Shown here in pieces: positions 5,878 to 24,955 of a stretch of 64,000 nucleotides of DNA. The notes beneath the pieces were generated by a model. It worked only from the letters and a program-made list of their open reading frames with translations. It was not told where the DNA came from and searched no databases. Each line of letters starts with the position of its first letter. The first letter of the stretch is position 1. The translations under genes and the position numbers were made by a program. This DNA comes from an uncultured Oscillospiraceae bacterium (GTDB taxonomy: Bacteria; Bacillota; Clostridia; Oscillospirales; Oscillospiraceae), in contig CAKTPM010000005.1 of assembly GCA_934591705.1 (NCBI GenBank), positions 972 to 64,971 on the forward strand. Reading direction: 5' to 3'.

Positions 5878-5924
5878 ACTTTCTAACATCTCCTTTTTGT
5901 AATTTGCTTTACTCTCCCGTATAG

Positions 5925-5976: not shown

Positions 5977-5979
5977 CAA

Positions 5980-6150: not shown

Positions 6151-6174
6151 TGCCGGGCAGGATATCTGCTGTAT

Positions 6175-7662: not shown

Positions 7663-7665
7663 CTT

Positions 7666-11100: not shown

Positions 11101-12686
11101 GTATAGCCCTCGCCGGGAACCAGCAGGAAGACATCCTGGGTCCCGCCGGCAGAGGCGGGGCCGATCTCGGCCCCGGCGCTGTTGAAGACATGCACCTTGA
11201 CATCCGCAGCATGCTGCACGGTGACGGAGACAGCCGCCGTCTTTTCCACCGTCAGCGTATAGCGCCTGCTCTGCCCGGCATGAGCCACCTGCACCTCAAG
11301 AGCCGTCTCCGGCTCCGTAAGGGCGACGGTCATCCCCTCGCCGCTCCGGAGCGGCTCGCCGTTGACGGAAACGGCATATGCCTCATCAAAGGCAGTGGGC
11401 GTAAGGGTGATTTCATCTGCTGTCACCCGGCAGGTATAGTGCTCCCCCTCCGGCGTAAAGCCGAAATTCTGGGGGATCCCTTGGACGCTGAGCGCCAGGG
11501 CGCTGAGGGTGGGGACCCGCAGGATCTCCATGCGGTACTGCTGATAGGCCGTGTAGCCCTCCTTGGCGTACCGCGCCTCGATCACGGCGGTGCCGCCCCG
11601 GGAGGAGGCATCTAAAAAGTCCTTCAGAACGGCGTTGATGCTTGCCCAGGGGGCTCCGACCTTTTCGATCTCCGCCCCCGCCGTGTTCCGATAGAGCCCC
11701 GCCCAAGACACGGAGTCTGTGTTATAGCTGCCGCCGGTCTTAGGCAGATCTCTGCCGGCAGGGCAATAGATGTAGGCGCTTTTCACCGCGTCCGGCACAT
11801 AGTAGATGCTGCTGTTGTCCGTCCCCTCCGCAGAGGGATAGGCGTCCCCCTCCAGCTTGCCGGAGGTGCGGTGGAGAATGGGCGCTGCCAGCCATTGGGC
11901 GTCCGCCGGGAGCTTCACGGCGGATACCGTCTTGCCCTCCATTTGGACAGCCCCATCGGCCAGCACGGTCATGGTACCCCGGGCGCCGTTGAAGCCGGCG
12001 GTCACCTGAAAATCATAGCGGCCCTCCGCCAATTGGAGCTTCTCTCCGGCGGCGAAGGTAAAACCGGTGCCGTAGGCATTTTTCGCCGCAAAGGCATAGT
12101 CCGTCAGGGGACTGCCGCTCAGGTCGGTGACCGTAAGGCGCAGCGTCTTTTTCTCCGCGTCCAGAACGGCCTGATAGGCCTCCATTTTCTCCTTCAGAGC
12201 CGTGGCCGCGGCATCGTGGGCCTCCGCCGTCAGCAGCGCCGCCTCCGCGGCGGCATACTCCCCGGCGGCGTAGTTTCTCACCGGCTCCTGGGCCTCGGCA
12301 TAGTCCGCCATGGCGCACACCAGCCGGCAGTAGGCCCCGGGATCCTCGGCAGAGAGCTCGGTGAATACGAAGCAGGCGGTGTCAGCGGCGGGAGCGTTCA
12401 GATCGTAGCCGCCCCGGTCGTCAAAGCGGTTATAGTTCCCAGAAACGCCGTCGATCTCGGTGATAAAGCCGTCAACGGCCCCTGTAAAGGTATGTCCCTG
12501 CATCCCGCTGAGGACCTGCCAGACGGTTTCACCGGCGGCAGCGTTCACATACTGCGGGGCGATGACCACCCTTTCACCTGTGACGGCGGCCACCGCCAGG
12601 CGGCTCTCCTCCTCCGCCAGGGCGGCGGGAATGCCCTCCAGGAGCATGAACAGCGCCAGCAGAAGGGCGGTGATCCTCTTTTTCAT
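8157..12686 (-). CDS. Giant (~1510 aa) secreted multidomain protein: N-terminal DUF4430-like module, cadherin-like beta-sandwich repeats, PQQ-type beta-propeller, C-terminal type-I dockerin.
   Basis: Start MKKRITALLLALFMLLEGIPAALA after RBS GAAGGGAGGAAG. N-terminus VWQVLSGMQGHTFTGAVDGFITEIDGVSGNYNRF. Repeated RRYTLTVEK / QDYILTLHK / RTYTLTLHKK motifs. Propeller-type repeats (YFTSKGGYFYSV, WTYTSPGGFYWAGAYV, IGTDDGTGG). Dockerin DLNGDGAVDIFDLQCLYTYL...DYNRDGQVDILDYQALYEAV. Confidence 0.75.
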   Translation of the reverse strand: MKKRITALLLALFMLLEGIPAALAEEESRLAVAAVTGERVVIAPQYVNAAAGETVWQVLSGMQGHTFTGAVDGFITEIDGVSGNYNRFDDRGGYDLNAPAADTACFVFTELSAEDPGAYCRLVCAMADYAEAQEPVRNYAAGEYAAAEAALLTAEAHDAAATALKEKMEAYQAVLDAEKKTLRLTVTDLSGSPLTDYAFAAKNAYGTGFTFAAGEKLQLAEGRYDFQVTAGFNGARGTMTVLADGAVQMEGKTVSAVKLPADAQWLAAPILHRTSGKLEGDAYPSAEGTDNSSIYYVPDAVKSAYIYCPAGRDLPKTGGSYNTDSVSWAGLYRNTAGAEIEKVGAPWASINAVLKDFLDASSRGGTAVIEARYAKEGYTAYQQYRMEILRVPTLSALALSVQGIPQNFGFTPEGEHYTCRVTADEITLTPTAFDEAYAVSVNGEPLRSGEGMTVALTEPETALEVQVAHAGQSRRYTLTVEKTAAVSVTVQHAADVKVHVFNSAGAEIGPASAGGTQDVFLLVPGEGYTYVTDREIYYHAKGSFTAEAGLTLAAAAPQTEDALDGLWLAASSMPVAKNKSVLLQVPKAPAHSHTVSVTDASSSLYIWVQNAGCTFTALETGYTVNQKETGSTGQFLRSFLRTGDETQTLTLRATKNGGGEVEQYQDYILTLHKTLTLKDTNGLRLTAEGIDTPLSYKNTAGEEVTGFDRDITDYRATLPRSTEEAVLTLEPYGENYYVYVNGRRYAPPADEQGTAGSFTVRVPLDTEKDQEVISITPGSERVPAGAQRRTYTLTLHKKAAVETLFTVRDPSGQPLADALVCVYDNRTGKRVWPREDGRYLLVDTLLYTYVVTCPGYVGQSRVFTAGKAASALRLTMTAAPESRCGEGITSSWDSFRGNNAANGVIEHKTPITAQSAYLSWASKLGKGFDTAAVGCPILITEDGYDYLIVYSGKKLFKLDAVSGVTVAEGEMDHNSSFAINSATFAQGMLFVGLADGGVQAFDAATLKSLWLYQDALGGQPNCPITYWDGCIYTGFWNKEDREANLVCLSITDEDPASEKESKLPRWTYTSPGGFYWAGAYVCEDYLLIGTDDGTGGCTSETAALLCIDPATGKLMDSIKNLRGDIRSNISYADGRFYFTSKGGYFYSVAAPQKQGDIWRLDKDSLRAVALENGGTPSQPAMSTCTPVVYKDRAYIGVSGTGQFTQYSGHSITVIDLKTWQIAYSVPTQGYPQTSGLLTTAYSEGDGAVYVYFFDNFTPGKLRVLKDTPGQTKPVLTTQESFIDKDKTTVYQTPYVLFTPADAQAQYAICSPIADSFGTIYFKNDSAHLMALASSIVSMEVTRQPDKTAYVAGEYFDPTGMEITLTYENGLSRTLPAERTVNGKKIAYFTWPREPLRREDEGELLLHFAYSLYQDGEDGVGTQVTSVPALLSIRVEPAGLGDLNGDGAVDIFDLQCLYTYLSTGAIEGDYSGRETAYREAADYNRDGQVDILDYQALYEAVKRAGGGRSQ

Positions 12687-12702
12687 GCTTCTTCCTCCCT
12701 TC

Positions 12703-15036
12703 TCAGTACAGGCAGCAGATCCAGCGCCGATAAAACCGCTGCCAGGGGCTCCACCGGCTCTTACACACCGCAAGAGCCGTCTCGGTCTGCTCTCTCATGC
12801 GTTGGCGCTCTGCCGGGGACACATCCTCATTGCTGTAAAGTGCTTTTGCATTACAGGTAATGATATCTCTTATATTCATCGTTTCCCCTGCCCAGTCCTG
12901 CAGGGCATTCTCCAGCTGGGTAAGGGGCACATTTCGCCAGGGAACGCCGCAAAGGCGGGCCAGGCAGACCACATAGGCGCACATGGCCGCCGCCGCGGCA
13001 TTGGCATCCGGCTGGGTAAAGCGCCTGCTCCTCCTGCGGCAGATGACGCCGCGGCGTATGCAAAGGGCTCCTACGGCACCGGCCAGAAGGATGAGCAGCA
13101 CATAGAGCCAGTCCCTGGGACCCAAATGCAGACGGCTGAAGTAGTCATAGAGGCCCTCCACGAGCTCCTGGAGGTGTACTCCCGACTCCGGGGTCTCCTC
13201 CTCTACCTCATTCTGCCGCTGGGTCTGGGAGAGGGTGCCCTGGCCGTTCTCGGCGGCCGAGCCGCTCAAGAGGGCGTTTTCATCCTCCTCGAACCACAGC
13301 CACTGGGGCTGGGGCATCACATCATAATAGGCGGGCGCGGCCTCGAAGGGCACCCAGCCCACACCGTCCTCATAGTATTCCGCCCAGGCATGGGCATCCT
13401 GCCCGGTAAGGGTCAGGGTGGTCTCCCCGGTGCTGCCCGCTATGGCGGCGGGGGTGACGAGATAGCCCTCCACATAGCGGGCGGGGATGCCGAAATACCG
13501 CAGCATCACCGCCGCCGCGGTGGCGTAGTGGACATCGCAGCCCTGGGCCCCCTCCTGCAAAAGCGCCAGGACGGGGTCCTCCCCCCCGGAGAGGGCCGCG
13601 GGGGTGTCGCTATATTCCACGGCGGTCTCTAAAAACGCCGTGATGCGCCGCTTGGCCTCATAGGAGGTGATGGTCTGGGGGGCCTCCCCCAGCGCCTCCG
13701 AAAGAGCCGTTTGTATCCGGGTGGGAATGGCCAGATAGTTCTCATAGACAAACGCCCGGTAGGTATCCTCAAAGCTCAGATAGTCCTCCAGCCCCTCCTC
13801 CTGCCAGCGCTCATTGAGTCCGGCCAGCAGGGCGTAGGCCTCGGCGGTGAGGTTTTCCGACACGGTATAGGAGCAGTGCTTTTCCCCGAAAAGCCCCCGG
13901 GCAGCGGGCAGGGTATCCCGCAGCTGCGCCGGATCCGCCGCCGGGCTCTCCGGCGTCAGCTCATAGGGGGTGATGCGTCCGGCGCGGCAGGCACCCAGCA
14001 GGCGTACATCCACTGTAAGGGTGTCCTTTCCCTGCCCCAGCAGCTCGGAGAGAGCCGCCAGCTGAGAGAAGCCGTTATATCCCCGCAGGTGCCAGGCATA
14101 GAGGGACGCATGGTCCGCCGTCATGTCCCGGGCCTCGGCATCGGCCCACCCGGCGGAGGTGTAGCGCTGCCCCACAAAGCTGCGGAGATAGAGCGGCGTC
14201 GGCTCCGAGAGGGTCACCTCCAGCATGGGGGTCTCAGCATCTCTCTCCGGCAGACGGGTCAGGTCTCCCTCCGGCAGCGCCTGCCGGGCGGGCTCGTAGC
14301 GCAGGGCGTGCACCGCCCGGTGCAGGGCGTTGGCCGCTCTCTGCGTGTCCACGCTCACCCTTTGGGAAAGGGTCAGGCCCACCGCCGTGATAAGCGCCGC
14401 CAGGACGATCAGCAGTGCCAGGGCCGCGGGCTGTGCAGGCACCGGTCCCTCCTGGGCGCGCTCCTCTGTGAAGAGCAGCACGCTGCAGCCCAAAAGCAGC
14501 AGGATCAGCCAGCCGCTTCCGACGCTCCAGCGGAGGGAAAAGATGACCGCCGCCGCAAAAACTGCCCAGCTCGCCCGGGGCCGCAGCGCCGCTAAGGCGC
14601 CGAGGCAAAGCCCCAAGACCCCGCAGGCCGGCAGCTGTGCCCACAGCAGGGACACTGCCTCGCAGGCGTAAGGGGAATAGTCCAGGGCGTCGATATCCCG
14701 CCGCCAGGCGCAGAATTGATTGGCCAGCTGCAAAAAGCCGTTTGCCGCCCCATGGGAGAAAATCCCGCAGAAGCAGATGACCGCCAGGAGAAGTCCCATC
14801 GGCAGCCAGAGCAGCCGGTCCCGCCGGGCGGAAAAGAGCGCCGCTGCCGCCGCGGCCAGGGCCCCGACGCAGAGGGACGCGGGGCTTCCCAGTGGAAAGC
14901 CATCGGCCAGCAGGCCCACGGTGCCGCCGAAAAGCAGCAGTGCGCCCAGCACCCGCAGAAGGGCGCCGGGAGACAGCACGCTGCGCGCTATTGGTTTTTC
15001 CGGGGCTGCTGTGAACCCTCCGGCGGTTTTTTTCAT
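12703..15036 (-). CDS. Transglutaminase-like domain membrane protein (TgpA-like partner of DUF58/MoxR).
   Basis: Multiple N-terminal TM segments. Transglutaminase core GQCDVHYATAAAVMLRYFGIPARYVEGY. RBS GGAGTAAGAGGA before the ATG. Confidence 0.8.
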   Translation of the reverse strand: MKKTAGGFTAAPEKPIARSVLSPGALLRVLGALLLFGGTVGLLADGFPLGSPASLCVGALAAAAAALFSARRDRLLWLPMGLLLAVICFCGIFSHGAANGFLQLANQFCAWRRDIDALDYSPYACEAVSLLWAQLPACGVLGLCLGALAALRPRASWAVFAAAVIFSLRWSVGSGWLILLLLGCSVLLFTEERAQEGPVPAQPAALALLIVLAALITAVGLTLSQRVSVDTQRAANALHRAVHALRYEPARQALPEGDLTRLPERDAETPMLEVTLSEPTPLYLRSFVGQRYTSAGWADAEARDMTADHASLYAWHLRGYNGFSQLAALSELLGQGKDTLTVDVRLLGACRAGRITPYELTPESPAADPAQLRDTLPAARGLFGEKHCSYTVSENLTAEAYALLAGLNERWQEEGLEDYLSFEDTYRAFVYENYLAIPTRIQTALSEALGEAPQTITSYEAKRRITAFLETAVEYSDTPAALSGGEDPVLALLQEGAQGCDVHYATAAAVMLRYFGIPARYVEGYLVTPAAIAGSTGETTLTLTGQDAHAWAEYYEDGVGWVPFEAAPAYYDVMPQPQWLWFEEDENALLSGSAAENGQGTLSQTQRQNEVEEETPESGVHLQELVEGLYDYFSRLHLGPRDWLYVLLILLAGAVGALCIRRGVICRRRSRRFTQPDANAAAAAMCAYVVCLARLCGVPWRNVPLTQLENALQDWAGETMNIRDIITCNAKALYSNEDVSPAERQRMREQTETALAVCKSRWSPWQRFYRRWICCLY

Positions 15037-15054
15037 TCCTCTTACTCCTGCCTG

Positions 15055-16197
15055 TCAGCAAAGATCGATTTCCGCCAGCATCCCGGCGTAATGGGTCTCA
15101 TCAAAGCTGTATACGCGGCCCGCTCCGCTCTCCCCGCCGCCGCACAATAGGGACACTAAGTTCTCCTCCGGGCACAGCGCCGCCGGGGGCGGCGCCTCGG
15201 CCAGGCCCACAAAGATGACCTTGGTGTTGTTTTCCAGCCCATAGAGCCGGCGGTACATTTCCGCTGCCGTTTCCCCGCCGCAGGACGGCGAGGCGCTCAG
15301 AAGCTGCGGCAGCAGCTCATAGAATTCTTCCTTTTCCCGGGCCTCGAAGGTCACGAGCTCCCCTGCCCCGCGATCCCAGGCGGCACGGCAGCTGACCCCC
15401 TGCTCCAAAAGCTCCCGGCACAGGGTGGCCATCACCTCGGCCATGGCATCGCTCTGCCGGGGCGTGGGGCTGCCGCCCCGCTCCCAGAGGATCAGCACCG
15501 CCTGCTCCAGAGGCAGAGCCGGGTCGCGGACAATGAGCTTGTCCATTTTGGAGGACAGCTTCCAGTGGATCTGCCGGAGCCCGTCGCCCGGGACATATTC
15601 CCGGATCTGATAGGGCTCGGAGTAGTCATAGCCGGGCCGATCCGGGGCATAGCGGTCGCTTTCCCGGGAAATACCGCTGCGCTGGGGCAGCAGCAGCTCC
15701 ATGGGAAAAAGCGCCGGCTGCACGGCCAGCTGCAGACTGCAGGCCGCCTTTACCGGAAGGCGGCAGATGCCTAAGGGGTCGCAGACCTCCAGGCGCAGCA
15801 GCTGGATCGTGAATAGGCCGCACTGGGCGCTCTCCAGCGCCAGCACCGCCTCTCCCCGGCCCCTGGGCGGGAGGGAGAGAACAGCGGTGCAGTCCGCCGT
15901 CTCGCCGGTAAGCCCGTTCTCCAGCCGGCAGCAGCAGCGCACCCGGGGCAGCGGCAGGAGGGATGTATTTTCCCCCCGGAGCAGGATGACCGCCTTTTTC
16001 CCCTTCTCCGCCGCCCGGGGCAGCCGGATGTCCAGCTCCACCGCTCTGCGGGCCGGCAGGGTCAGCAGGATGCCCAGAAGCGGCACCAGCACCGTAAGGA
16101 GCGCCAGCGCCAGCGTCCATCCTCCGGGGGCGGTGACCCACAGGGCCGCTGCTGATAGGATGGTCAATAGCCAGCCGGCGGCTGCAGGGACGCTCAC
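15055..16197 (-). CDS. DUF58 family protein (von Willebrand-type partner of MoxR). GTG start overlapping the MoxR stop (GTGA).
   Basis: DUF58 motif YQIREYVPGDGLRQIHWKLSSKMDKLIVRDP. No in-frame ATG for about 200 codons after the MoxR stop; the GTG sits immediately at the stop. Confidence 0.75.
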   Translation of the reverse strand: MSVPAAAGWLLTILSAAALWVTAPGGWTLALALLTVLVPLLGILLTLPARRAVELDIRLPRAAEKGKKAVILLRGENTSLLPLPRVRCCCRLENGLTGETADCTAVLSLPPRGRGEAVLALESAQCGLFTIQLLRLEVCDPLGICRLPVKAACSLQLAVQPALFPMELLLPQRSGISRESDRYAPDRPGYDYSEPYQIREYVPGDGLRQIHWKLSSKMDKLIVRDPALPLEQAVLILWERGGSPTPRQSDAMAEVMATLCRELLEQGVSCRAAWDRGAGELVTFEAREKEEFYELLPQLLSASPSCGGETAAEMYRRLYGLENNTKVIFVGLAEAPPPAALCPEENLVSLLCGGGESGAGRVYSFDETHYAGMLAEIDLC

Positions 16198-17132
16198 AGC
16201 GCCGCCACCTGGGGGACCGCCACCTGCTCCCGGATGCGGTAGGTGATCTCCTCCGCCGTGAGCTTGCCCAGCCGGGCCTTGGCGCTGAGCACCAGGCGGT
16301 GGGCGCATACGGCGTCAAACACCTCGTAGACATCCTCCGGCGTCACAAAATCCCGGTCCCGGACAAAACCGTGGGCCTTCGCCATCCGGCACAGGGCCAG
16401 AGCCCCCCGGGGGCTGATGCCCAGGTCAATATATTCGTTGCTGCGTGTGGCGCTCACCAGCTCCACGATGTAGTCATAGATGCTCTCGGCGATATGTACC
16501 TGCCTGGCCTGCTCCGTCAGCTGCAGGAGCTCCTCTTTGGTCACCACGCCCTCCAGACGATCCAGCGGGTTTTCATGGTGGCGCTCCCGGAGGATCTCCA
16601 GCTGGCTCTGCCGGTCCGGATATCCCATGGTGGTGCGGATCATGAAGCGGTCCAGCTGGGAGGAGGGCAGCAGCTGCGTGCCCGCCGAGCCCACGGGGTT
16701 TTGCGTGGCCAGCACCACAAAGGGCTCCGGCAGCGGATAGGTTTGGCCGTCCACCGTGACCTGGTATTCCTCCATGGCCTCCAGCAGAGCCGACTGGGTC
16801 TTGCTGGAGGTGCGGTTGATCTCGTCGGCCAGGAGCAGATTGGTCATCACCGCGCCGCTTTTGAAGTCAAAGGCGCCGGTGGCCTTGTTGTAAACGGAAA
16901 AGCCGATAATGTCAGAGGGCATGGTGTCGGAGGTGAACTGCACCCGGCGGCTGTCCAGCCCCAGGGTCCTGGCAAAGGCCAGGGCCATGGTGGTCTTGCC
17001 CACGCCGGGAACATCCTCCAGGAGCACATGGCCCTGGGCCAGCACCGCCATGAGGACCTTTTCCGTTACCTCTTCCTTACCGATGACCACGGAGTTGACC
17101 TGCTGCAGGATCCTTCCGGTAGTCTCATTCAT
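16194..17132 (-). CDS. MoxR-family AAA+ ATPase.
   Basis: Walker A GVGKTT, Walker B LLADEINR, and overall MoxR pattern (VIGKEEVTEKVLMAVLAQGHVLLEDVPGVGKTTMALAFA...ILATQNP). Confidence 0.85.
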   Translation of the reverse strand: MNETTGRILQQVNSVVIGKEEVTEKVLMAVLAQGHVLLEDVPGVGKTTMALAFARTLGLDSRRVQFTSDTMPSDIIGFSVYNKATGAFDFKSGAVMTNLLLADEINRTSSKTQSALLEAMEEYQVTVDGQTYPLPEPFVVLATQNPVGSAGTQLLPSSQLDRFMIRTTMGYPDRQSQLEILRERHHENPLDRLEGVVTKEELLQLTEQARQVHIAESIYDYIVELVSATRSNEYIDLGISPRGALALCRMAKAHGFVRDRDFVTPEDVYEVFDAVCAHRLVLSAKARLGKLTAEEITYRIREQVAVPQVAAL

Positions 17133-18294
17133 GGACATCACTTCCTTTTTTCTTTCTCACGGCAAGCACGCCGCAGGTCCCTGCCGCCAGCAGGACGGCG
17201 GGGAGGATATAGACAGCCGCTCCGGGCCTTTTATCGGCGGCCGGGACCGCCTCCGCCGCTTGCTGCGTCCACTGGGGCGGCTTGGCGGCGTCCTTCATCT
17301 GAAAAAAACTGTCTTCACCGATCCGGAGGCGCCGCAGGGCCTCCAGGGCCTGCATCGCCTGCTCCGTGGCCATGGGGTCGGCGGTGTCGGTATGGGCAAA
17401 GCTGCCGTCCTCCGTGCGGAAGCGCAGCAGCGCCGCTACCGGGTCGCCGCCGGGCTTTATAAATCGTGCCTCCCGCTCCGGGTCAAGACCCAGGGCGCAA
17501 AGCGCCAGGATCACCTGGGCACTGCTCTCGGCGCTCTCCGCCCCCCAGGAGCTGAAGCCGCCGTTTTCCAGCTGCAGCGCTGAGAGGGCCGTCAAACCTC
17601 GGTCGATGGCCTCCCCATACTGATCGGCATAGGGGGCCAGGGCCTGCAGGGCCATGGCGGTGATGTCCGCGTCCGCCGGGCCGCCATCCAGGGAAAAGCC
17701 GCCGTCCGCCGCCTGGGCGGCGAGGATGGCCCCGAGCATATCCTCCCGGGTATAGACCGCACTCTCCCCGGCGGCATAGCCGCCGGAATCCACAGTCAAA
17801 AGGGCGTATATCCAGCCATTGAGTCCCTGGGCGCCGGGGCCGCCCTCCACCACGCAGTTATAGCAGCCGTCGGCAATAAGGTCGATGGGAGTGCCGTCGG
17901 AGTGCGTGCCGAAGGCGGATGCATCCCCGCCCAGGGCCGTGACAGCCAGGGCGATGCGGTGCCACTCCGTGGCCTTATAAAGGGAAAGACCTTCCCCGGC
18001 ATAAGCGCTCTCCACATAGCGCCGCAGAGCCACCAGATAGGTATCATAATCCTCGGGGATGCCGCTGCGGGCCATGGCGATAGCAAACCAATCCGCCACT
18101 GCCGAGTCCCCTGCCGGCAGGACCTCCTGCCGGGAGAGGAGGGCGCCGCCCTGGGCGTACCGGGCGCGCTGCGCCTCCGCCGCCTGCAGGATCAGTGCCG
18201 CGGGGTCCTCCTGCGGCGCCGCCCCCCGGGCCGATCCCGGCATAAGGCAGGCACACAGAAGCAGCAGCGCCAGCACTTTCAGATATTTTTTCAT
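17125..18294 (-). CDS. Secreted prenyltransferase/squalene-oxidase-repeat (alpha/alpha-toroid) protein with a C-terminal TM anchor. Transcobalamin alpha-domain-like candidate.
   Basis: Signal peptide MKKYLKVLALLLLCACLMPGSARG. Repeats DGGFSLDGGPADADITAMALQAL / ENGGFSSWGAESAESSAQVILALCALG / EDGSFAHTDTADPMATEQAMQAL. C-terminal hydrophobic stretch AVYILPAVLLAAGTCGVLAV then KKK. ATG overlaps the upstream stop (ATGA). Confidence 0.65.
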   Translation of the reverse strand: MKKYLKVLALLLLCACLMPGSARGAAPQEDPAALILQAAEAQRARYAQGGALLSRQEVLPAGDSAVADWFAIAMARSGIPEDYDTYLVALRRYVESAYAGEGLSLYKATEWHRIALAVTALGGDASAFGTHSDGTPIDLIADGCYNCVVEGGPGAQGLNGWIYALLTVDSGGYAAGESAVYTREDMLGAILAAQAADGGFSLDGGPADADITAMALQALAPYADQYGEAIDRGLTALSALQLENGGFSSWGAESAESSAQVILALCALGLDPEREARFIKPGGDPVAALLRFRTEDGSFAHTDTADPMATEQAMQALEALRRLRIGEDSFFQMKDAAKPPQWTQQAAEAVPAADKRPGAAVYILPAVLLAAGTCGVLAVRKKKGSDVHE

Positions 18295-20273
18295 GTTTCC
18301 TCTTCCTCCTCCCGGCCGCAAATGGTACACCTTCCGTCCGCATAGGTATGCTCTCCGGTCTTCGGCAGCACATCCGTCACGGTGCCGGAGACCGCCGTAC
18401 CGTCGATGGTGCCGGCGGCCCGGTAGATGATGCAGCCGTCCTGTCCGCAGGTGGGCTCCCGGCGGTCGATGACCTCCAGGGTGCATGGGATGCTCCGGTG
18501 AGCGGCGCATCGGGTGCAGGTGAACTCCGCGGTGCAGCTCTCTGCGCTCTCCCGCTGCACCGGGCCCATCTTGTAATCGTGGCCCAGGGCCGGGATGCTC
18601 CGGGTACTTATCTCGCCGCATTCCGTGCAGGTGAGGGTCATTTCCCCGGGCGCCTCGCAGGTGGGCGCCGCCGCGACCGTCTCCGCCCAGGTGTGGACAT
18701 GGGCCTCCTGCGCCTGGCCGCAGACCGCGCATTTTCCGTTTTCAAAAACATGCTGCGGCGTATAGGTGCCCCCCAGCCATGTGCCGCAGTAGAAGGGTAA
18801 GGTCCCCCGATTGCCGGCGGCCGCCGCGCCGCCGATATCCTTTCCGTAGGCCAGGGTGAACACCAAGCTCAGCACATCGCCGTCATCCAGGTAGACATTG
18901 CTCAAGCTCTGGCCGGGATAATAGCCGTTGACGGAGAACATCCAGCCGGAGCCCACGGTGTAGTCAAATTCCCCCAAGGAGTCCTTATAGGCGGCCGGGC
19001 GCTTGATCTCCCAGCCGTCCAGGGTTAGGAGATTTTTAAGCTCCGCGGGGATCTGCGCATCGGCAAAGGCGCCGCCTCCGCTGATACGCTGCAGATAATA
19101 GCCCACCTCTTTTGTGCCCTTGGCGGAAACGGTAAAGCCCATATCCTCCAAAAAGCGCGCCGCCAGATAGGAGGCCGCCTCCCCCTGGCGCACATCGTAG
19201 GTCTCGCTGTCCACGATCCCCATGCCCAGGGTGGTGAGATCCAGCCGCAGCGTGGCCGCGCCGATCACCTGACCCTCCTCGGAAAAGAGGTAGTCGATGG
19301 TGTATTTTTTATAGGAGGAGCTGCCGTTATCGTCCCAGGCGATGACCTCCACGGTGTGGCGGATGCTGTCCCCCACCGTGCCCGGCTTCAGATAGAGCGG
19401 ATACTCCACCGTGCTGCCGCCGGTATACTGGGTGATCTCCACACCGTCCAGCAGCACCCGCAGGTGATTGTGATAGATGGCGCCCCGGCTGTTATAGGCG
19501 GTGACCTGCAGGGTGAAGTTCTTGTTTCTTACGGTGTTGCCCTCGTCCCGCAGATTGGTGACGATGGTGGGGGGGTCCTCTCCCACCTGGGCATTGTCGC
19601 CATCCGCCATGGGGGCCTGGTAATGCACGGTCTTTGTAACAGTCTGCAGGAGCGTGCCGTCCTGATAGACCAGCAGGGTGAAAACATTCTTCCCCTGCTG
19701 CAGGGCGGCGGAAAACCGCCCGCCGGCGCTGCCGCTGAGCCGCCGACCCTCTAAGAGGACCCGGACAGAGGCGCCCTTCTCCGCATTTTGCAGGTAGGCA
19801 TAAAACTGCAGCTTTCCCTCCGGCAGCTCACCGTAGGGGATGGTCCTGTTCTTAAGATCCGTCACCAGCTGCATCCGGGGCTTCTCGGTGTCGGTCTTAT
19901 CCTTGTCGGCGGGGGAGCCCTCCTGCTCCTTCTTCTCCTCGCCCCCGGCGCCGCCGCCGGGCTGCTGGGTCTCGGTCTGCTGCTCCTTGGGCTCCGGCTT
20001 ATCCTGGGGCTGCTGGGACTCCCCCTCCCGGTTTTCCTCCGGGGCCTGGGTCTCCTCCGGTGCCGCGGCGTCATACCGAAGGGGCACCGGCCGCAGGTTC
20101 ACGCCGCGAAAGGCCCGATCCGCCGGGGCGGCGGGCGGCGTATGGGCAGCACCTCGCAGCAGCAGCGCTGCCGCCGCCAAAAGCGCGGCCAAGAGCACCA
20201 GCCCGGATAGCCGGAGTATATACGGTTTTTTATTTCTGCGATCGATCTTCATTCCCATTCCGGCCTTTTTCAT
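18291..20273 (-). CDS. Signal-anchored membrane protein with a disordered P/E/Q linker, a DUF4430 domain and a Cys-rich (4x CxxC) C-terminal tail.
   Basis: N-terminal KKPYILRLSGLVLLAALLAAAALLL TM segment. DUF4430-like ASYLAARFLEDMGFTVSAKG...EFDYTVGSGWMFSVNGYYPGQSLSNVYLDDGDVLSLVFT. CAVCG, CTECG, CTRC, CTICG motifs near the C-terminus. Confidence 0.7.
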   Translation of the reverse strand: MKKAGMGMKIDRRNKKPYILRLSGLVLLAALLAAAALLLRGAAHTPPAAPADRAFRGVNLRPVPLRYDAAAPEETQAPEENREGESQQPQDKPEPKEQQTETQQPGGGAGGEEKKEQEGSPADKDKTDTEKPRMQLVTDLKNRTIPYGELPEGKLQFYAYLQNAEKGASVRVLLEGRRLSGSAGGRFSAALQQGKNVFTLLVYQDGTLLQTVTKTVHYQAPMADGDNAQVGEDPPTIVTNLRDEGNTVRNKNFTLQVTAYNSRGAIYHNHLRVLLDGVEITQYTGGSTVEYPLYLKPGTVGDSIRHTVEVIAWDDNGSSSYKKYTIDYLFSEEGQVIGAATLRLDLTTLGMGIVDSETYDVRQGEAASYLAARFLEDMGFTVSAKGTKEVGYYLQRISGGGAFADAQIPAELKNLLTLDGWEIKRPAAYKDSLGEFDYTVGSGWMFSVNGYYPGQSLSNVYLDDGDVLSLVFTLAYGKDIGGAAAAGNRGTLPFYCGTWLGGTYTPQHVFENGKCAVCGQAQEAHVHTWAETVAAAPTCEAPGEMTLTCTECGEISTRSIPALGHDYKMGPVQRESAESCTAEFTCTRCAAHRSIPCTLEVIDRREPTCGQDGCIIYRAAGTIDGTAVSGTVTDVLPKTGEHTYADGRCTICGREEEEET

Positions 20274-20301
20274 CCAGTTTCTTATGTCCGGTGCTGTCTT
20301 C

Positions 20302-20570
20302 TGTAAAAAAGAACGCCGCCTTGCAAGGCAGGGCGGGCGTGCCGATCATCCTCCGAAGAAATGAGGTCGGGCGGAAGCGGCACGGCTTCATGCCGCTTCC
20401 GCCCTATGGAAAAGCTGACGGCCCTGCGTCGACCGTCCTGGCTTAGCAAAGGGGATGCAGCGCATCGTTTCACCTGACGAAAAAGGCCGACTGTCCAAGG
20501 ACAGCCGGCACCTGACACATAAAAACGGCGCTGACGAATTCGCCAGCGCACACATCTCTTTTCGTCACAA
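20302..20570 (-). terminator. Series of intrinsic-terminator-like hairpins inside the operon leader: 20536-20570, 20488-20520, 20410-20438, 20302-20337.
   Basis: Minus strand: GCGCTGGCGAATTCGTCAGCGC+CGTTTTT; GCCGGCTGTCCTTGGACAGTCGGCC+TTTTT; GACGGTCGACGCAGGGCCGTC+AGCTTTTCC; CGCCCTGCCTTGCAAGGCGGCG+TTCTTTTTT. The last one is about 30 nt before the ATG at 20273. Confidence 0.5.
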
Positions 20571-20639
20571 CGATGAAGCGCCGCTGTAAACAAGCTCTCG
20601 ACCGTGCAATTCTACTGCCCTCGCGCCATGAAACTCTCG

Positions 20640-20875
20640 TTTCTGCGTACATGACCTACCTTCTCAGAGCTTGCGCTCCAATGGCGGTATTACCCAGCGG
20701 CTCAAAGCCGTTTCGGTCACTTCCTTGCGCTCACAGTGCCGTCCGCAGTGGGTTTCGGTACCCATATTCCTTTTAGACTGCTGCCTGATGAGGTGTCATC
20801 TTTGCGGCAAACAGTCACACGGCGTCACAGAACTTTTTCGATATTCTATTGGGTGCAGAGCTCCCCTCCACACCA
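20640..20875 (-). ncRNA. Candidate second cobalamin-riboswitch-like element in the leader of the DUF4430/dockerin operon.
   Basis: Downstream of a consensus promoter, the minus-strand sequence AAAAGGAAUAUGGGUACCGAAACCCACUGCGGACGGCACUGUGAGCGCAAGGAAG contains the B12-box-like core (GGAAU..GGGU..GAAACCC..GCGGACGGCACUGUGA). It is weaker than the 5980-6150 element, but the two share the CGG(U/C)CACUGUGA core. Confidence 0.4.
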
Positions 20876-20881
20876 TGAAAA

Positions 20882-20910
20882 ACTATACACCAAATCCCGT
20901 GGTATGTCAA
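20882..20910 (-). promoter_or_regulatory. Sigma-A-type promoter TTGACA-17-TATAGT for the DUF4430/dockerin operon leader.
   Basis: Minus strand TTGACAtaccacgggatttggtgTATAGT, located immediately after the cobC stop. Confidence 0.6.
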
Positions 20911-20932
20911 GGGAGCTCCGCAAATATTCTCC

Positions 20933-21490
20933 TTATTCCGGGATGGGCGCATAGCCCACCGGCCGGCCCTCCTCGAAGGTCACGGTGTAGCCCGTGCCGG
21001 GCTTCCGGGGATAGGTAAAGCGGTCGCCGCCGAACCACTGCATCATCAGGTTGGCGATGACCCCGCCGTGGATGACGCATACGGCGTCCCCCTCCCCTGC
21101 CAGCACCTGGGCGATGGCGGCCATGTTCCGGGCCACCACCTCCGGCACGCACTCGCCGCCGGGACAGGGAAGGTGCTCGGGATCCTGGATCCACTGCAAA
21201 AAGGCCGGGTCGTCCTTCAGTTCTTCATAGGAATGCATCTCAAAGATGCCGAAGTCCATCTCCTGAAGGCCGGGGAGCCGGGTATGGGGCAGCTCCCCAT
21301 AGATGGCCCGGAAGGTCTGCTCCGTGCGCAGAAGGCCGCTGGTATAGTAGCGCGGGGCGGTGGGGAAATCCGCCGCCCGGGCGTGGAGCTCCGCCAGAGC
21401 GTCCTCTAAGGCCGGTATATCGGCCACGCCATAGTAAAGGTCGTGTAGACTGCCCTCCGTCTGCGCATGGCGCAGGATGGTCAATTTCAT
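20933..21490 (-). CDS. cobC: Histidine-phosphatase family protein; probable alpha-ribazole phosphatase.
   Basis: RHAQTE motif (LTILRHAQTEGS) of the phosphoglycerate-mutase/histidine-phosphatase fold. Last gene of the cobTUS cluster. ATG overlaps the upstream stop (ATGA). Confidence 0.7.
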   Translation of the reverse strand: MKLTILRHAQTEGSLHDLYYGVADIPALEDALAELHARAADFPTAPRYYTSGLLRTEQTFRAIYGELPHTRLPGLQEMDFGIFEMHSYEELKDDPAFLQWIQDPEHLPCPGGECVPEVVARNMAAIAQVLAGEGDAVCVIHGGVIANLMMQWFGGDRFTYPRKPGTGYTVTFEEGRPVGYAPIPE

Positions 21491-21837
21491 TTCAAAATCT
21501 CCTCCAGTCCGCAAAGAATACGCACCACCCGGCGGCTGCGGCGGGCCAGGGTCTGCAAAAAGGTGCCGTGGGCCTCCCGCCAGGACCGCTCAGCGGCATC
21601 CATCGGCACGATGCCGCCGCCCACCTCCCGGGAGACCACAACGGCCTCCTCGAAAAGCGGCAGATACCGCTCTAAGTCCGCCTCCCGGCGGCTGAGGGCC
21701 TCCAGGTGAAGGTAGCACCGCCTGCCGGGCACCGGGTCCTCCCGGGCCAGGTCGCAGATGTCCTCCGGCCGCAGGTCGTAGGTTTTTACCGCATAGGCAC
21801 ACTTTCCCTGAAAGGCGCCGCCAATGATCAAGATCAT
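21487..21837 (-). CDS. Short CobU-like protein with a degenerate P-loop (GGAFQGKC) and no central region.
   Basis: MILIIGGAFQGKCAYA resembles the CobU N-terminus (VTGGARSGKS). VVVSREVGGGIVPMDAAERSWREAHGTFLQTLA resembles the CobU C-terminus ([25 protein letters not shown]). Only 116 aa. Confidence 0.5.
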   Translation of the reverse strand: MILIIGGAFQGKCAYAVKTYDLRPEDICDLAREDPVPGRRCYLHLEALSRREADLERYLPLFEEAVVVSREVGGGIVPMDAAERSWREAHGTFLQTLARRSRRVVRILCGLEEILK

Positions 21838-21841
21838 ACTC

Positions 21842-22567
21842 TCACCTCACACATACCGCCACTAACGCCCCGGCCAGCTCTCCCAGGGTCAGGGCAAAGC
21901 CGGAGACATCACCGGACATTCCCCCCAGCTGGCGGCCGGCCCACAGAACACAAAGCCAATATACCGCTGCCGCCGCGAGGGCCGCGAAGCTGTGCCACAG
22001 AAAAAGCGGCAGCACAGCGGCCAGCGCCAGCAGCAGGGCGCTCCACACCACCGGCGCCGGCTTATGGGCCAGGGCCGCATACTGGCTGGTGCCCATAGGC
22101 CGCAGGGTCTGCACCGCCAGGGCTGCCGCCCCACGGCTGGCCACCGGGATAAAAAGCAGGGCCCCCCAGGGTACCCAGGCGCCCAGGAAGGCGCTCCATT
22201 GGCACAGGGCCAGCAGCACCATGCCGATGACGGCGAAGGCCCCGCAGCGGGAGTCCTTCAGGATGCGCTGGCGGGTCTCCAGATCCCGGCGGGAGAGCAC
22301 CGCGTCGCACACATCCATGTAGCCGTCCAGGTGGAAAAAGCCCGTGACCAGCCAGGGGGCGGCGGCGCAGAGCACAGCCCCCAGAGCTGCCGGCAGAAAG
22401 CCGCTCAGCCAGGCGCACAGCACCCAGAAGCCCCCCACGACGGCCCCGATAAAGGGCAGGGCGCAGAGCATCTGCCCCCGGGCCGCCTCATCCCAACGCT
22501 TATAGGGACAGGGCACCGCCAGAAACATGCCCCAGGCCATGAAAAAGCCCGTTATGCATTTTTTCAC
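21842..22567 (-). CDS. cobS: Adenosylcobinamide-GDP ribazoletransferase (cobalamin synthase).
   Basis: GFFHLDGYMDVCDAV matches the CobS HxDGxxDxxDA motif. Multi-TM. Probable GTG start overlapping the cobU stop (GTGA). Confidence 0.85.
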   Translation of the reverse strand: MKKCITGFFMAWGMFLAVPCPYKRWDEAARGQMLCALPFIGAVVGGFWVLCAWLSGFLPAALGAVLCAAAPWLVTGFFHLDGYMDVCDAVLSRRDLETRQRILKDSRCGAFAVIGMVLLALCQWSAFLGAWVPWGALLFIPVASRGAAALAVQTLRPMGTSQYAALAHKPAPVVWSALLLALAAVLPLFLWHSFAALAAAAVYWLCVLWAGRQLGGMSGDVSGFALTLGELAGALVAVCVR

Positions 22568-23097
22568 AAGGGCCACTCCCCTTTCCACAGATGCGGCAGA
22601 CCTCCGGACATTTCGCAGACCGCATCGAATTCCGCCGCCAGCCGCCGGGCGATGGCCGCCAGGCCCCGGACATAGACCTCCGTCCAGTCCTCGTATATCT
22701 CGCCGCCGCGGAAAATATCATCGCACACCGCCACAAAGTGCCGCACATGGCGGCTGACGGTCAAAAGCTCCTCCGCCACGATGTCCGGGGCGTTTTCTGC
22801 AAACTCCGCGCCGAACATCCGCTCGGAGAGCGCCGCCGTGACGCTGTCAAAGAGCACGCAGCCCGCCGCCTCCACCTGCTCCAGGGCCCCGGGGAGATCC
22901 CGGGGGCGCTCCACGGTGGCAAAGCCCCAGCCGTCCCGGTCGGCGATGTGCCGGGCGATGCGGGCGCGATCCTCCTCGTCACGGGGGGTCATGGTGGCCC
23001 AGTAATAAAGGGGGCCATCTCCGCCCAGGGCCCGGCACAGGTGCTGGGCCGCGGTGCTCTTTCCGCTTTTGCTGCCGCCTAACAATAAAACTCTCAT
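22564..23097 (-). CDS. cobU: Adenosylcobinamide kinase / adenosylcobinamide-phosphate guanylyltransferase.
   Basis: P-loop VLLLGGSKSGKST. Length about 177 aa. Confidence 0.85.
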   Translation of the reverse strand: MRVLLLGGSKSGKSTAAQHLCRALGGDGPLYYWATMTPRDEEDRARIARHIADRDGWGFATVERPRDLPGALEQVEAAGCVLFDSVTAALSERMFGAEFAENAPDIVAEELLTVSRHVRHFVAVCDDIFRGGEIYEDWTEVYVRGLAAIARRLAAEFDAVCEMSGGLPHLWKGEWPL

Positions 23098-24197
23098 GTT
23101 TTTTCCACCGTAAAGCTGTCGTGGGCCCGTATCTCGTCCAGATAGCCGTCCTCAATGGACGCCTGGGCGAAGGTGGCCATGCCGGCGGTCATGGCACAGG
23201 CCGCCTGCAGGATGCGGAACAGCAGCACGCAGCCGCTGCCCTCCCCCAGGCGCATATCCATGTCCAGACATGGTGTTAAGCCCAATTCCTTTACAGCGAT
23301 CTGATAGCCCACCTCATAGGAGCTATGGGAGAGGAAAAGGGCGTCCTTCACCGCGCCGCACAGGCGCACGGCGCACAGGGCCGCCACCACGGAGATAAGG
23401 CCATCGGCCACCGCCGGCAGGCGCAGCCGGGCGCAGCCCAGATAGGCACCCGTCATGGCGGCCAGGTCAAAGCCCCCCACCGCCGAGAGTACATCCGGTA
23501 CATCCGCCGGATCGGGGCGGTGCAGGGCCAGGGCCTCCTCGATGACCTTCTTTTTCAGGGCAAAGCCGTCGTCCGTCAGGCCGCCGCCGCGCCCCGTGAC
23601 CTCCCGGGCGCTGCGGCCCGTCAGGGCGGCCAGCACCGCCGAGGAGGTGGTGGTGTTGCCGATGCCCATCTCGCCGATGCCCAGAGCGTCCACGCCCGCA
23701 CGCTTGGCCCGCTCCGCTGCCTGAATACCCACAGCCACGGCCTCCAGCACCTGCTGGCGGGTCATGGCCCGCTCCCGGCGGAGATTTTTCGTGCCCGGGG
23801 CGATGCGGCAATTCAGGATGTGCTCATAGGGCAGCGGCGTGGCCACGCCCACATCCACTACCTCCACCTGGTCGCCGAAGGCGGCGGCCATGGCGGACAT
23901 CCCGGTCTTTCCCCGGGTCATGTTGATGCACTGCTGGGCGGTGACGGTGATGGGGGCGCAGGACACCCCCTCGGCCACCACGCCGTTGTCCCCGGCGAAC
24001 ACCGCCACCCGGCAGTGCTCCACCCGGGGGCAAACCGCCCCGGTGAGCCCTGCCAGGCGCACGGCCATGTCCTCCAGCTTGCCCAAGCTTCCCGGGGGCT
24101 TGGCCAGCTCCGCCTGGCGCTTTCGTGCGGCGTCCATCACCCGGCGGTCCGCCGGGGCGATGGACGCGATATAGCTTTTCAGTTCCTGCTCTGTCAT
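23094..24197 (-). CDS. cobT: Nicotinate-nucleotide--dimethylbenzimidazole phosphoribosyltransferase.
   Basis: GEMGIGNTT motif. N-terminus MTEQELKSYIASIAP...LAKPPGSLGKLEDMAVRLAG. RBS GGGAGAAGGGG before the internal ATG; the listed TTG start is upstream. Confidence 0.85.
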   Translation of the reverse strand: MTEQELKSYIASIAPADRRVMDAARKRQAELAKPPGSLGKLEDMAVRLAGLTGAVCPRVEHCRVAVFAGDNGVVAEGVSCAPITVTAQQCINMTRGKTGMSAMAAAFGDQVEVVDVGVATPLPYEHILNCRIAPGTKNLRRERAMTRQQVLEAVAVGIQAAERAKRAGVDALGIGEMGIGNTTTSSAVLAALTGRSAREVTGRGGGLTDDGFALKKKVIEEALALHRPDPADVPDVLSAVGGFDLAAMTGAYLGCARLRLPAVADGLISVVAALCAVRLCGAVKDALFLSHSSYEVGYQIAVKELGLTPCLDMDMRLGEGSGCVLLFRILQAACAMTAGMATFAQASIEDGYLDEIRAHDSFTVEKT

Positions 24198-24955
24198 AAA
24201 TACCCCTTCTCCCTGAGCCAGTCCAGGGAGGGCCGGCAATTCATGTTTTCAATGGTAAAATCCGCCGCCGGGCACTGCTCCAAAAGTGTGTCCAGCACAT
24301 GCTCCATGGGGATGCTTCCCTGCCCCAGAGGGGCGTGGAGATCCCAGTCGCCATCGTTGTTGTGGATGTGTACATGCCGCAGCCACGGGGCAAGCGGCGC
24401 GATCCACTCCCCGGGCGGCAGGGCACTGACCCGGGTGTTGGCGTGGCCCACATCCCAGCAGCAGACCAGCCGGGGGTCATCCACCGCCTCCAGCACGGCC
24501 CGCAGCAGCCGGGGGTCTTCGTCCATGACATTCTCCAGGGCCAGGGTCATGTCCGCCGGCACCTCCCGGAGAAAATCCTGCCAAAAGAGCACCGACTGCT
24601 CTATGAACCATTCCGGGAAGTAGACCATGGGCACATAGCCGTCATGGATGACGATGTGCCGAATACCCAGATGCCGGGCCACGGCCATGGTCTCCCGGTA
24701 GCGGCGGCGGGCGGTCTTTCTCACCAGCGGATCGATGGCGCAGGGGTGGAGCTCTGCAAAGGGCGCGTGGAGCCACAGGCGGTTCTGTCCGGCGGTGTCC
24801 TTCTCCGCGGCGGCCAGGGTGGGGCCGTCCGCCAGCAGGGAGGCCTGACAAAAGGCCGTGACCTCAAAGCCCAAGCCCATTTCCCGGGCAATGCCCGCCG
24901 CCTGGCCGTCGATGCCGGAGAGGCACAGCTTATCCCCCAGGGCTTTTCGCTCCAT
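24194..24955 (-). CDS. Sugar-phosphate isomerase/epimerase (xylose-isomerase-like TIM barrel) family protein.
   Basis: Start MERKALGDKLCLSGIDG after RBS AAAGGAGG. WDVGHAN and HVHIHNNDG motifs typical of the AP-endonuclease-2/xylose-isomerase TIM-barrel fold. Confidence 0.65.
   Translation of the reverse strand: MERKALGDKLCLSGIDGQAAGIAREMGLGFEVTAFCQASLLADGPTLAAAEKDTAGQNRLWLHAPFAELHPCAIDPLVRKTARRRYRETMAVARHLGIRHIVIHDGYVPMVYFPEWFIEQSVLFWQDFLREVPADMTLALENVMDEDPRLLRAVLEAVDDPRLVCCWDVGHANTRVSALPPGEWIAPLAPWLRHVHIHNNDGDWDLHAPLGQGSIPMEHVLDTLLEQCPAADFTIENMNCRPSLDWLREKGYL

Follow-up and report, generated by a model that had tools for sequence, protein, structure and literature searches.

Cobalamin riboswitches of the Cbl-I type, which respond to adenosylcobalamin (AdoCbl; RF00174; structures 4GMA and 4GXY in PMC7367189), are built from helix P1, a P2 loop-stem-loop and a P3-P6 four-way junction. 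Their hallmarks are the P2 module, a long P6 extension and J6/3 adenines that frame the adenosyl pocket (PMC7367189). For the corrinoid riboswitch of Priestia megaterium metE, a transcriptional OFF switch, the logic of P13, antiterminator and terminator was demonstrated by mutagenesis, and the L5 loop of corrinoid riboswitches has the consensus UCCCG (PMC10327014). Atypical riboswitches that bind cobalamins are known as well, such as B. subtilis yvrC with its short P6 (PMC7367189) and M. tuberculosis metE/ppe2 with translation of an upstream open reading frame (uORF; PMC11260477); they are precedents for deviation from the class consensus, be it in the B12 box or in peripheral elements. Here we report on a 600-nucleotide (nt) leader in a 64,000-nt stretch of DNA from an uncultured Oscillospiraceae bacterium (contig CAKTPM010000005.1, positions 972 to 64,971), which we call the window and whose own numbering is used throughout. 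On the minus strand, the leader occupies the interval from the stop of a His_Phos_1 (CobC-type) open reading frame (ORF; 20933-21514) to the ATG at 20273. It is probably a transcriptional OFF riboswitch of the cobalamin (corrinoid) clan, belonging to a diverged Cbl-I-type subfamily and followed by inherited hairpins. The elements needed first are these:

20882-20910, minus strand: sigma-70-type promoter, TTGACA (20910-20905), 17 nt, TATAGT (20887-20882), an 11/12 match.
20592-20835, minus strand: predicted aptamer of a divergent Cbl-I-type cobalamin (corrinoid) riboswitch, 245 nt, from RF00174 alignment, nhmmer and covariation.
18291-20273, minus strand: first gene of the operon, a 660-aa secreted or anchored protein with a weak DUF4430 match, from the ORF list and Pfam.

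The aptamer comprises P1, the P2 module, the P3-P6 four-way core and a P6 extension that is long and carries two additional hairpins. The string GGAAUAUGGGUACCGAAACCCACUGCGGACGGCACUGUGAGC at about 20770-20729 falls inside it, and a B12-box-like segment, GGCGCGAGGGCAGUAGAAUUGCACGG, is located at 20627-20602. Rfam at gathering scores (for RF00174 a curated 31.5 bits) calls no cobalamin element in the window. A relaxed RF00174 search gave a full-length alignment (model positions 1-189) to 20837-20588, scoring 15.7 bits when 901 nt were searched (E = 0.16) and 20.2 bits when 321 nt were searched (E = 0.003). The score is low because the element carries three long insertions and a degenerate B12 box (GGGCAGUAGAAUUGCA). 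The sequence-only reading, an earlier annotation made from the letters of the window, had suggested a riboswitch and a check against RF00174; the model does align over its full length, but below the gathering score, so that "no hit" is true at the curated threshold only. Such a sub-threshold alignment alone does not decide the matter; the comparative data do.

The program nhmmer matched the window segment 20852-20460 directly upstream of the orthologous gene in ten loci (L001 and L003-L011, E = 1e-15 to 1e-22). The 660-aa protein has 87 homologues, and a genome scan yielded 80 loci, labelled L001 and so on, mostly from metagenome-assembled genomes of Oscillospiraceae. Additionally, a pattern made from the invariant core, GGCACTGTGA..GCCATTG..GAGAAGG, returned at least 120 metagenome stretches, mostly from human gut, among the matches listed. 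The metagenome set contains 102 unique aptamers, which fall into 47 clusters at 95% identity and 15 at 70%. All family counts are of unique sequences and not of independent evolutionary events, and the family loci were all obtained via the riboswitch, an ascertainment bias that affects the gene associations and the distribution of the two-hairpin module H3-H4 described below.

For the 47 representatives, RNAalifold predicts 53 pairs and compensatory changes are seen in 37 of them. A hand-drawn Cbl-I structure (P1, three-part P2, P3, P4, P5, P6, six extension helices and P13) is paired in 85% of the cells, compared with 72.8% for column shuffles and about 40% for slid partners; none of 500 shuffles reached the observed values, and 51 of the 76 hand-drawn pairs show double changes. 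P6a was drawn one column off and reaches only 11.7% in this tally, while in the RNAalifold register (columns 170-173 with 337-341) it is paired in 47 of 47 sequences. Helices P1, P3, P4, P5 and P6 are kept in the representatives, a four-way junction P3-P6 closed by P1 is supported, and covariation also backs P2a, P2b, P2c and the extension helices P7-P12, an extension larger than usual. From these alignments we conclude that the element is a selected, structured RNA with cobalamin-riboswitch architecture. The earlier proposal of a riboswitch is thereby borne out by ten orthologous loci, about 100 unique sequences, covarying helices and the canonical RF00174 riboswitches that precede orthologues of the first gene. 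One could still read the aptamer as a decaying, non-functional relic and the leader as a string of constitutive terminators, which would fit the sub-threshold Rfam score and the degenerate B12 box of the window (CAGUAGAAUUGCA versus the consensus CCAGGAGACCUGCC). However, about 100 distinct sequences keep every helix through compensatory changes, long single-stranded stretches are invariant, and the expression platform is conserved along with the aptamer. We consider decay highly improbable.

Canonical RF00174 riboswitches of 33-104 bits stand at the same place before orthologues in other Oscillospiraceae loci. L029 and L031 score 104 bits, L012 99, L021 and L075 97, L024, L048, L017 and L014 51-54, L034, L068 and L015 37-42, and L002 33. 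The subfamily continues at 33.2 (L156), 30.6, 25.3, 24.1 and 19.6 bits and extends to below 19, and only L156 passes the gathering score. Judged by these model scores, canonical and subfamily riboswitches form a continuum. P3 covaries across this spectrum: it is GG/CC in the consensus and in L153, AG/CU in L029 and AA/UU in the subfamily (43-44 of 47). The B12 box with J6/3, rAGYCMGgAgaCCkGCc in the consensus, reads GGGCAGUAGAAUUGCA in the window and GUCAGGAGAAUUGCA in most of the subfamily. Most members retain AGYCAGGAGA and carry GAAUU in place of GACCU, for which the P3 change compensates. GYCAUUG..GAGAAGG and the J6/3 GAGAA are present in the 104-bit members too and are therefore lineage traits and not departures.

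The subfamily keeps the Cbl-I hallmarks, namely the P2 module, the long P6 extension and the J6/3 adenines (AGAA). It also shares with the Cbl-I riboswitches P1, the P2 loop-stem-loop, the P3-P6 four-way junction, the GCCAYUG...GRGAAGG internal loop of the P6 extension, the A-rich J6/3 (B12 box) and B12-related targets. It differs from them in its sub-gathering score, its own L5, L4 and P3, the two extra P6-extension hairpins and the replacement of GACCUGCC by GAAUUGCA. L5 has the form G(G/A)NCG: among 94 members we count GGACG 46 times, GACCG 22 times, GAACG 19 times and GGUCG five times. The subfamily also differs from yvrC and metE/ppe2: it keeps and even enlarges the Cbl-I periphery. Going by its predicted architecture, the element descends from a Cbl-I cobalamin riboswitch and should work like one.

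The departures at the core are conserved (L5, L4, P3 AA/UU in 43-44 of 47, two extra P6-extension hairpins), and this raises the question of whether the subfamily is a distinct riboswitch subclass with altered selectivity, for a particular corrinoid form or for a non-corrinoid. Its ligand could then be a cobamide whose lower ligand is a different one, cobinamide or some other incomplete corrinoid, or a corrinoid with another upper ligand. An activating riboswitch responsive to cobinamide exists, the adjoining cobT, cobU, cobS and cobC genes (cobTUSC) attach the lower ligand, most members score below gathering, and small peripheral changes are known to shift the selectivity of cobalamin riboswitches (PMC7367189). 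On the other side, leaders of this one gene family span an unbroken range of scores, from 104 to 16 bits, and J6/3 AGAA, the GCCAUUG...GAGAAGG internal loop and GAGAA are common to the 104-bit canonical members. Because the P3 change is compensatory, it appears to be structural and not a change of the pocket. Moreover, PMC9600662 describes cobalamin riboswitches as broadly sensitive to many corrinoids. We regard altered selectivity as quite unlikely and stay with a diverged Cbl-I-type corrinoid riboswitch.

The genes downstream fit this assignment. A Pfam scan covered eight minus-strand ORFs between the leader and a second element at 5980-6150. After the 660-aa gene come an unassigned protein, MoxR AAA_3, DUF58 and a transglutaminase; the last three genes encode a cadherin-like/dockerin protein of 1538 aa, a DUF4430 protein of 164 aa and a dockerin protein. 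Transcobalamins have DUF4430 as their C-terminal domain (PMC4350170). Upstream lie cobT (DBI_PRT), cobU, cobS and cobC. Because of DUF4430, the adjoining cobTUSC genes and the canonical riboswitches before orthologues, a corrinoid is the most likely ligand. A literature search for "cobalamin riboswitch" together with DUF4430 or dockerin returned nothing relevant. The ATG at 20273, taken as the start codon by the sequence-only reading, has a rival in a second ATG at 20258, to which the gene caller's start of the 98%-identical P0001 (655 aa) corresponds; the 655-aa form is called in contig L201.

The wider family shows which genes such leaders precede. For 43 of the 93 unique leaders whose flanks are long enough to judge, the first gene encodes a small, Lys-rich protein of 170-240 aa that has a single HNH_repeat (PF18780), followed by surface-protein genes with cohesin, dockerin, DUF4430-dockerin, cadherin-like, Big and MotA/ExbB domains. 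Another 28 stand directly before large secreted proteins (the 660-aa family and GLUG/Big_3 giants), and 11 are followed only by an independently promoted CN_hydrolase gene (10 of these 11 enter the terminator tally below). Single cases precede CbiQ, DUF4430 or an ABC permease. The domain content suggests that the operons encode a cellulosome-style surface assembly with transcobalamin-like B12-binding modules, and the HNH_repeat protein may be a regulator.

Some loci deserve a separate record. Examples of the HNH_repeat gene are L091:1719-2237, L096:1453-2172 and L163:1650-2171, with about 40 more, as well as L014:3042-3359 behind a canonical riboswitch. Cohesin, dockerin, DUF4430-dockerin, cadherin-like, Big and Listeria-Bacteroides-repeat proteins are encoded in the riboswitch operons L130:1362-10799, L091:2441-7698 and window 6175-20273. 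At L092:637-1244 and at L107:5386-5991, divergent operons are served by two subfamily riboswitches arranged back to back on opposite strands, with about 450 nt between them. "Orphan" copies (L089, L100, L103, L117, L119, L123 and relatives; for example L119:534-900) carry the riboswitch, the terminators T1 and T2 and the H3-H4 module, with no operon gene; next comes a separate TATAAT promoter with a CN_hydrolase gene. These copies may be riboswitch-terminated small RNAs or relics.

The promoter that had been noted right after the cobC stop stands firm. It begins 22 nt past the cobC-like stop (20935-20933) and is the only site found by a consensus scan of 19800-21400, compared with 0.5 +/- 0.7 sites in shuffles. 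Of 94 unique family members, 37 have a promoter matching at 11/12 or better within about 110 nt upstream of P1; no shuffle has one. The position is kept in L003-L011. The whole leader also folds better than shuffles (z = -3.9), and the structure prediction that had been recommended recovers the hairpins. A terminator scan of both strands of a 1.6-kb region gave 5 sites compared with 1.5 +/- 1.2 in shuffles; on the leader strand it accepted T1, T2 and T5 and did not accept H3 and H4. The part of the leader directly behind the aptamer contains:

20567-20587, minus strand: P13-like hairpin, ACAGCG-GCGCUUCAU-CGUUGU, with a nearly invariant GCG(C/U) in the loop.
20544-20586, minus strand: candidate antiterminator, CAGCG.CGC..CAUC paired with GAUG.GUG.CGCUG, from folds of truncated transcripts.
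20521-20549, minus strand: terminator T1, GCGCUGGCG-AAUU-CGUCAGCGC followed by CGUUUUU, from the terminator scan, -15.7 kcal/mol.

After the 3' strand of P1, which ends at 20592, the order in the family is P13 hairpin, purine-rich spacer and T1 (stem 20549-20528, then U5). A terminator is found +50 to +90 nt past the aptamer in nearly all of the 93 unique instances. In 18 close relatives P13 is paired in 100% of the cells, with one-sided changes only, and T1 in 98.8%, with double changes in 5 of 9 pairs; together they reach 99.3%. P13 does covary in the wider alignment (helix 18). Its 5' strand and loop can also pair with 20556-20544, which includes the 5' half of T1. This helix forms in folds of transcripts truncated before the T1 3' half, both for the window and for six relatives, and 89.4% of its cells pair compared with 18-68% for slid partners; because its columns vary too little to beat the shuffle control, we speak of a candidate antiterminator only. 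Taken together, T1 looks like a riboswitch-controlled terminator, and P13, the possible antiterminator and T1 look like an OFF switch.

The switch would operate as follows. Transcription would start from TTGACA-17-TATAGT, near 20875, and would probably be joined by read-through from cobTUSC, because the interval between cobC and the promoter is without a terminator. The aptamer (20835-20592) would then fold into the helices described above. With a corrinoid bound, P13 (20587-20567) would be held, probably via a loop-loop contact of L5 and L13, so that T1 forms and transcription ends. Without ligand, the 5' strand and loop of P13 would pair with the 5' half of T1, and this antiterminator would let the polymerase continue. 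The L13 loop carries GCG(C/U), and its complementarity to L5 amounts to only 2-3 bp. The P. megaterium metE riboswitch is likewise a transcriptional OFF switch; here, however, the candidate antiterminator takes the 5' strand and loop of P13 and not its 3' side, one to four more hairpins follow T1, and the kissing-loop bases are not assignable. The sequence-only reading had offered a riboswitch with a complex expression platform or tandem attenuators; the hairpins are not one complex platform, and only P13, the candidate antiterminator and T1 look like a switch. What lies between T1 and the first gene is listed here:

20480-20509, minus strand: terminator T2, GCCGGCUGUCC-UUGG-GGACAGUCGGC followed by CUUUUU, from the terminator scan, -17.3 kcal/mol.
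20351-20471, minus strand: two-hairpin module, (U)UGCUAAGCC, H3, GCUUUUCCAUAGGG, H4, GACCUCA, from nhmmer, about 95 nt.
20429-20458, minus strand: proposed remnant of a lost HNH_repeat gene, GCAUCCCCUUUGCUAAGCCAGGACGGUC, homologous to its final codons in relatives (..NPCQAMTV*).
20305-20335, minus strand: terminator-like hairpin T5, CGCCCUGCCUUGCAAGGCGGCG followed by UUCUUUUUU, from the terminator scan, -9.7 kcal/mol.

Five hairpins with U-rich tails do precede the ATG, as had been stated, but H3 and H4 are not plain terminators. T2 (stem 20509-20486, then U5) has homologous hairpins that align in L003-L011 and in the L089 and L132 clades. About 64 of the 93 unique leaders have at least two terminator-like hairpins, and T2 as a second terminator is conserved in about two thirds of the family (some 69%). 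Surface-protein leaders all have at least two such hairpins (mean 2.75), and HNH_repeat leaders average 1.47; in canonical orthologues there is usually just one terminator, which is stronger, at -20 to -31 kcal/mol. For T2 we identified no anti-structure or alternative pairing. It would act as a second intrinsic terminator that probably lowers basal read-through. The idea that the 3' half of T1, once freed, blocks T2 was dropped, with only about 4 bp of complementarity in the window. As a side observation, the 3' strand and U-tail of T2, CGGCCUUUUUCGUC (20476-20489), are complementary at 13 of 14 positions to GAUGAAAAAGGCCG (20261-20274), which covers the ATG at 20273 and the likely ribosome-binding site (RBS) of the ATG at 20258 and lies 201 nt downstream of its T2 partner. 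This match could sequester the start region or be a chance pairing of an A-run and a U-run.

T5 (stem 20335-20314; 20331-20316 as accepted by the scan) ends about 32 nt before the ATG at 20273, in agreement with the earlier remark that the last hairpin is close to the start codon. Among all fetched loci it has a match only in the same-species contig L082, which is 99.5% identical over the stretch; a further contig of this species, L201, has a leader of equal length. We read T5 as a weak, species-specific terminator-like hairpin.

Serial termination points in one leader are also a feature of tandem riboswitch/terminator systems. In tandem TPP (thiamine pyrophosphate) and glycine riboswitches the whole sensor and terminator are repeated. 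The leader described here is different, with one aptamer followed by several hairpins of differing origin, and a literature search for "riboswitch" with "tandem terminators" gave nothing comparable.

H3 and H4 had been counted among the terminator-type hairpins, a view that we have to correct, as they form a conserved intercistronic module. The H3 stem (20437-20417, -10.7 kcal/mol) has the tail AGCUUUUCC, in which UUUU is broken by C, and the H4 stem (20404-20369, -35.8 kcal/mol) has the degenerate U-rich tail ACCUCAUUUCUUC. Searching the family loci with nhmmer gave 129 matches, 89 of them unique, and an E value of 2e-18 for the window. The consensus reads (C)CCUUGUCAAGCCnnGAC, H3, nGCUUUCCAUARGG, H4, nCCUC. 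MAFFT with RNAalifold missed H3 because indels misalign the stems, and per-sequence folding was used instead: 37 of 37 representatives form H3 and H4, with stem sequences that differ. Some loci have tandem double copies, such as L096 at 2150-2320; further copies, within the range of loci L081-L200, are found for example at L091:2210-2304 and L132:7248-7363. In Rfam the module has no match; at E <= 10 only chance-level microRNAs and small RNAs appear for window 20150-21050 and L096 2130-2420. Separately, we noted that the H4 3' arm and flank (CCCACCUCCUCUCUU) resemble the anti-Shine-Dalgarno end of 16S rRNA, and that the 5' arm resembles a Shine-Dalgarno sequence.

Three other explanations of the module were discarded. 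The roughly 190 nt after T2 are not a window-specific insertion, as H3-H4 is found in other clades. A sigma-70 promoter (TTGTCA...CATAAG) does not fit either, since the spacing varies between 27 and 35 nt with the length of H3. ANTAR-type dual hairpins follow a hexaloop pattern, which the loops of H3-H4 do not fit.

The relatives indicate where the module comes from. In loci of the HNH_repeat type its 5' part encodes the C-terminus of the protein (..NPCQAMTV*; DTNPCQAMTV and TSPSQAETV are found), and the stop codon lies in the H3 loop. The window has retained about 30 nt of the 3' end of this gene, GCAUCCCCUUUGCUAAGCCAGGACGGUC, which in the ancestral frame now reads through a UAA; an HNH_repeat homologue was looked for in the window and is absent. 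In a blastn comparison, window 20834-20544 corresponds to positions 62-350 of L086 and window 20413-20362 to positions 1057-1104. Because about 570 nt, the size of an HNH_repeat gene, are absent relative to L086, the window has evidently lost a small gene. L014 shows the order canonical riboswitch, HNH_repeat gene, 660-aa gene. By its position in the family, H3-H4 is a 3'-end or intercistronic element of the HNH_repeat gene, just after which it sits in most relatives, and it would have joined the leader through the loss of this gene. The 600-nt leader is best explained, as far as these alignments go, as riboswitch, T1 and T2 fused to H3-H4 by small-gene loss. The sequence-only reading was right to call this length unusual; the missing first gene (about 570 nt versus L086) would account for it.

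T2, H3-H4 and T5 may instead be an actively regulated second layer, neither back-up terminators nor relic. They would then be targets of a protein or a processive antiterminator, or sites of processing and stabilisation that determine in which stoichiometry the surface-complex genes are expressed. In line with this idea, the single-stranded segments of the module are conserved (CAAGCC, CUUUCCAUARGG, CCUC), its stems covary, and there are 89 unique copies and tandem doubles. The module always lies just upstream of surface-protein genes, it is kept in leaders without an HNH_repeat gene (window, L132, L135, L186), and terminator-like hairpins are more numerous in surface-protein leaders than in HNH_repeat or canonical ones (see above). 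Intergenic hairpins reportedly direct selective RNA processing and stabilisation in a Clostridium cellulosome operon. However, the 5' conservation is partly a coding constraint of the C-terminal HNH_repeat codons, the L003-L011 clade lost H4 and retained the operon, no candidate binding protein was identified, with the HNH_repeat gene absent from the window, and all loci were selected via the riboswitch, which biases the association. An active second layer is in our view unlikely, and we continue to see these hairpins as inherited.

A bolder combination, that the aptamer is a distinct corrinoid-riboswitch subclass and that H3-H4 is a new functional cis-regulatory RNA motif, can be put forward only tentatively. 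If it is true, the subclass would have its own L5/L4/P3 signature, an enlarged P6 extension and a selectivity tuned to a particular corrinoid form, and its targets would be corrinoid-capture complexes that bear DUF4430 and that gut Oscillospiraceae assemble on their surface through cohesin and dockerin. H3-H4 would then act in antitermination, processing or translation control and would not be a passive terminator relic.

Several observations weigh against the reading as a Cbl-I-type OFF riboswitch. The RF00174 score is below gathering in the window, and L001 and L003-L011 all fail this threshold too. The conserved core differs, with L5 G(G/A)NCG in place of UCCCG, an L4 without GGUGnAAAUCC and P3 AA/UU, and the first J6/3 base in the window is U (CAGUAGAA). 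Pairing of the candidate antiterminator, at 89.4%, is not above the column-shuffle control of 88.8%, and no covariation of L5 with L13 is visible, both loops being nearly invariant. T2 to T5 are without identified anti-structures, and if they are efficient terminators, expression of the operon is hard to explain. Finally, the HNH_repeat gene behind 43 of the 93 family leaders has no evident link to B12.

The B12 regulons of abundant gut Oscillospiraceae are probably under-called, because annotation at gathering score misses this riboswitch and about 100 gut-metagenome relatives. The proteins of the operon point to surface corrinoid-capture assemblies that would be off when B12 is plentiful, which matters for B12 competition among gut inhabitants. 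For studying which core changes cobalamin riboswitches tolerate or exploit, the subfamily offers natural L5/L4/P3 variation, and H3-H4 is a candidate new RNA motif. The proposed origin by gene loss is an example of how a long hairpin-rich leader may arise without a new mechanism.

A few further observations concern the surroundings of the leader. A 12-bp inverted repeat, GGGAGCUCCGCA / UGCAGAGCUCCC (20854-20865 and 20911-20922), flanks the promoter, and each arm holds GGAGCTCC, a palindrome, or a sequence close to it; the repeat may serve as an operator or form a hairpin in cobC read-through transcripts. Attenuation by a leader peptide or uORF was rejected, as the small ORFs in the leader are not conserved in the relatives, where the region differs. 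The cluster cobT-cobU-cobS-(short cobU-like ORF)-cobC at 20933-24239 has no Rfam-detectable riboswitch of its own in the window.

A second B12-like element lies on the minus strand at 5935-6160, after the stop of the last operon gene (GGAAUGGGGUGAAAUUCCCC..GUCGGUCACUGUGAAGCCG..AAGUCAGAUACGCC). The core CGGYCACUGUGA, noted earlier as common to this element and the leader, is indeed present (6059-6133), but it is simply the conserved P5/P6 core of cobalamin riboswitches. In an nhmmer search the subfamily profile matches a single copy in the window, and the element at 5980-6150 is therefore of a different kind and no member of the subfamily; with AdoCbl RF01482 it gives a weak partial match (14.3 bits, E = 8.9). 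A strong terminator at about 5975-5935 is followed by an RBS and the TTG start at 5878 of a surface-protein ORF of more than 1959 aa that continues beyond the start of the window; the long ORF 1700-5902 on the plus strand is the antisense shadow of this gene. On the minus strand, Rfam at gathering scores further calls a T-box leader at 52200-52427 (122.9 bits), a TPP riboswitch at 63685-63796 (66.3 bits) and a tRNA at 62884-62954.

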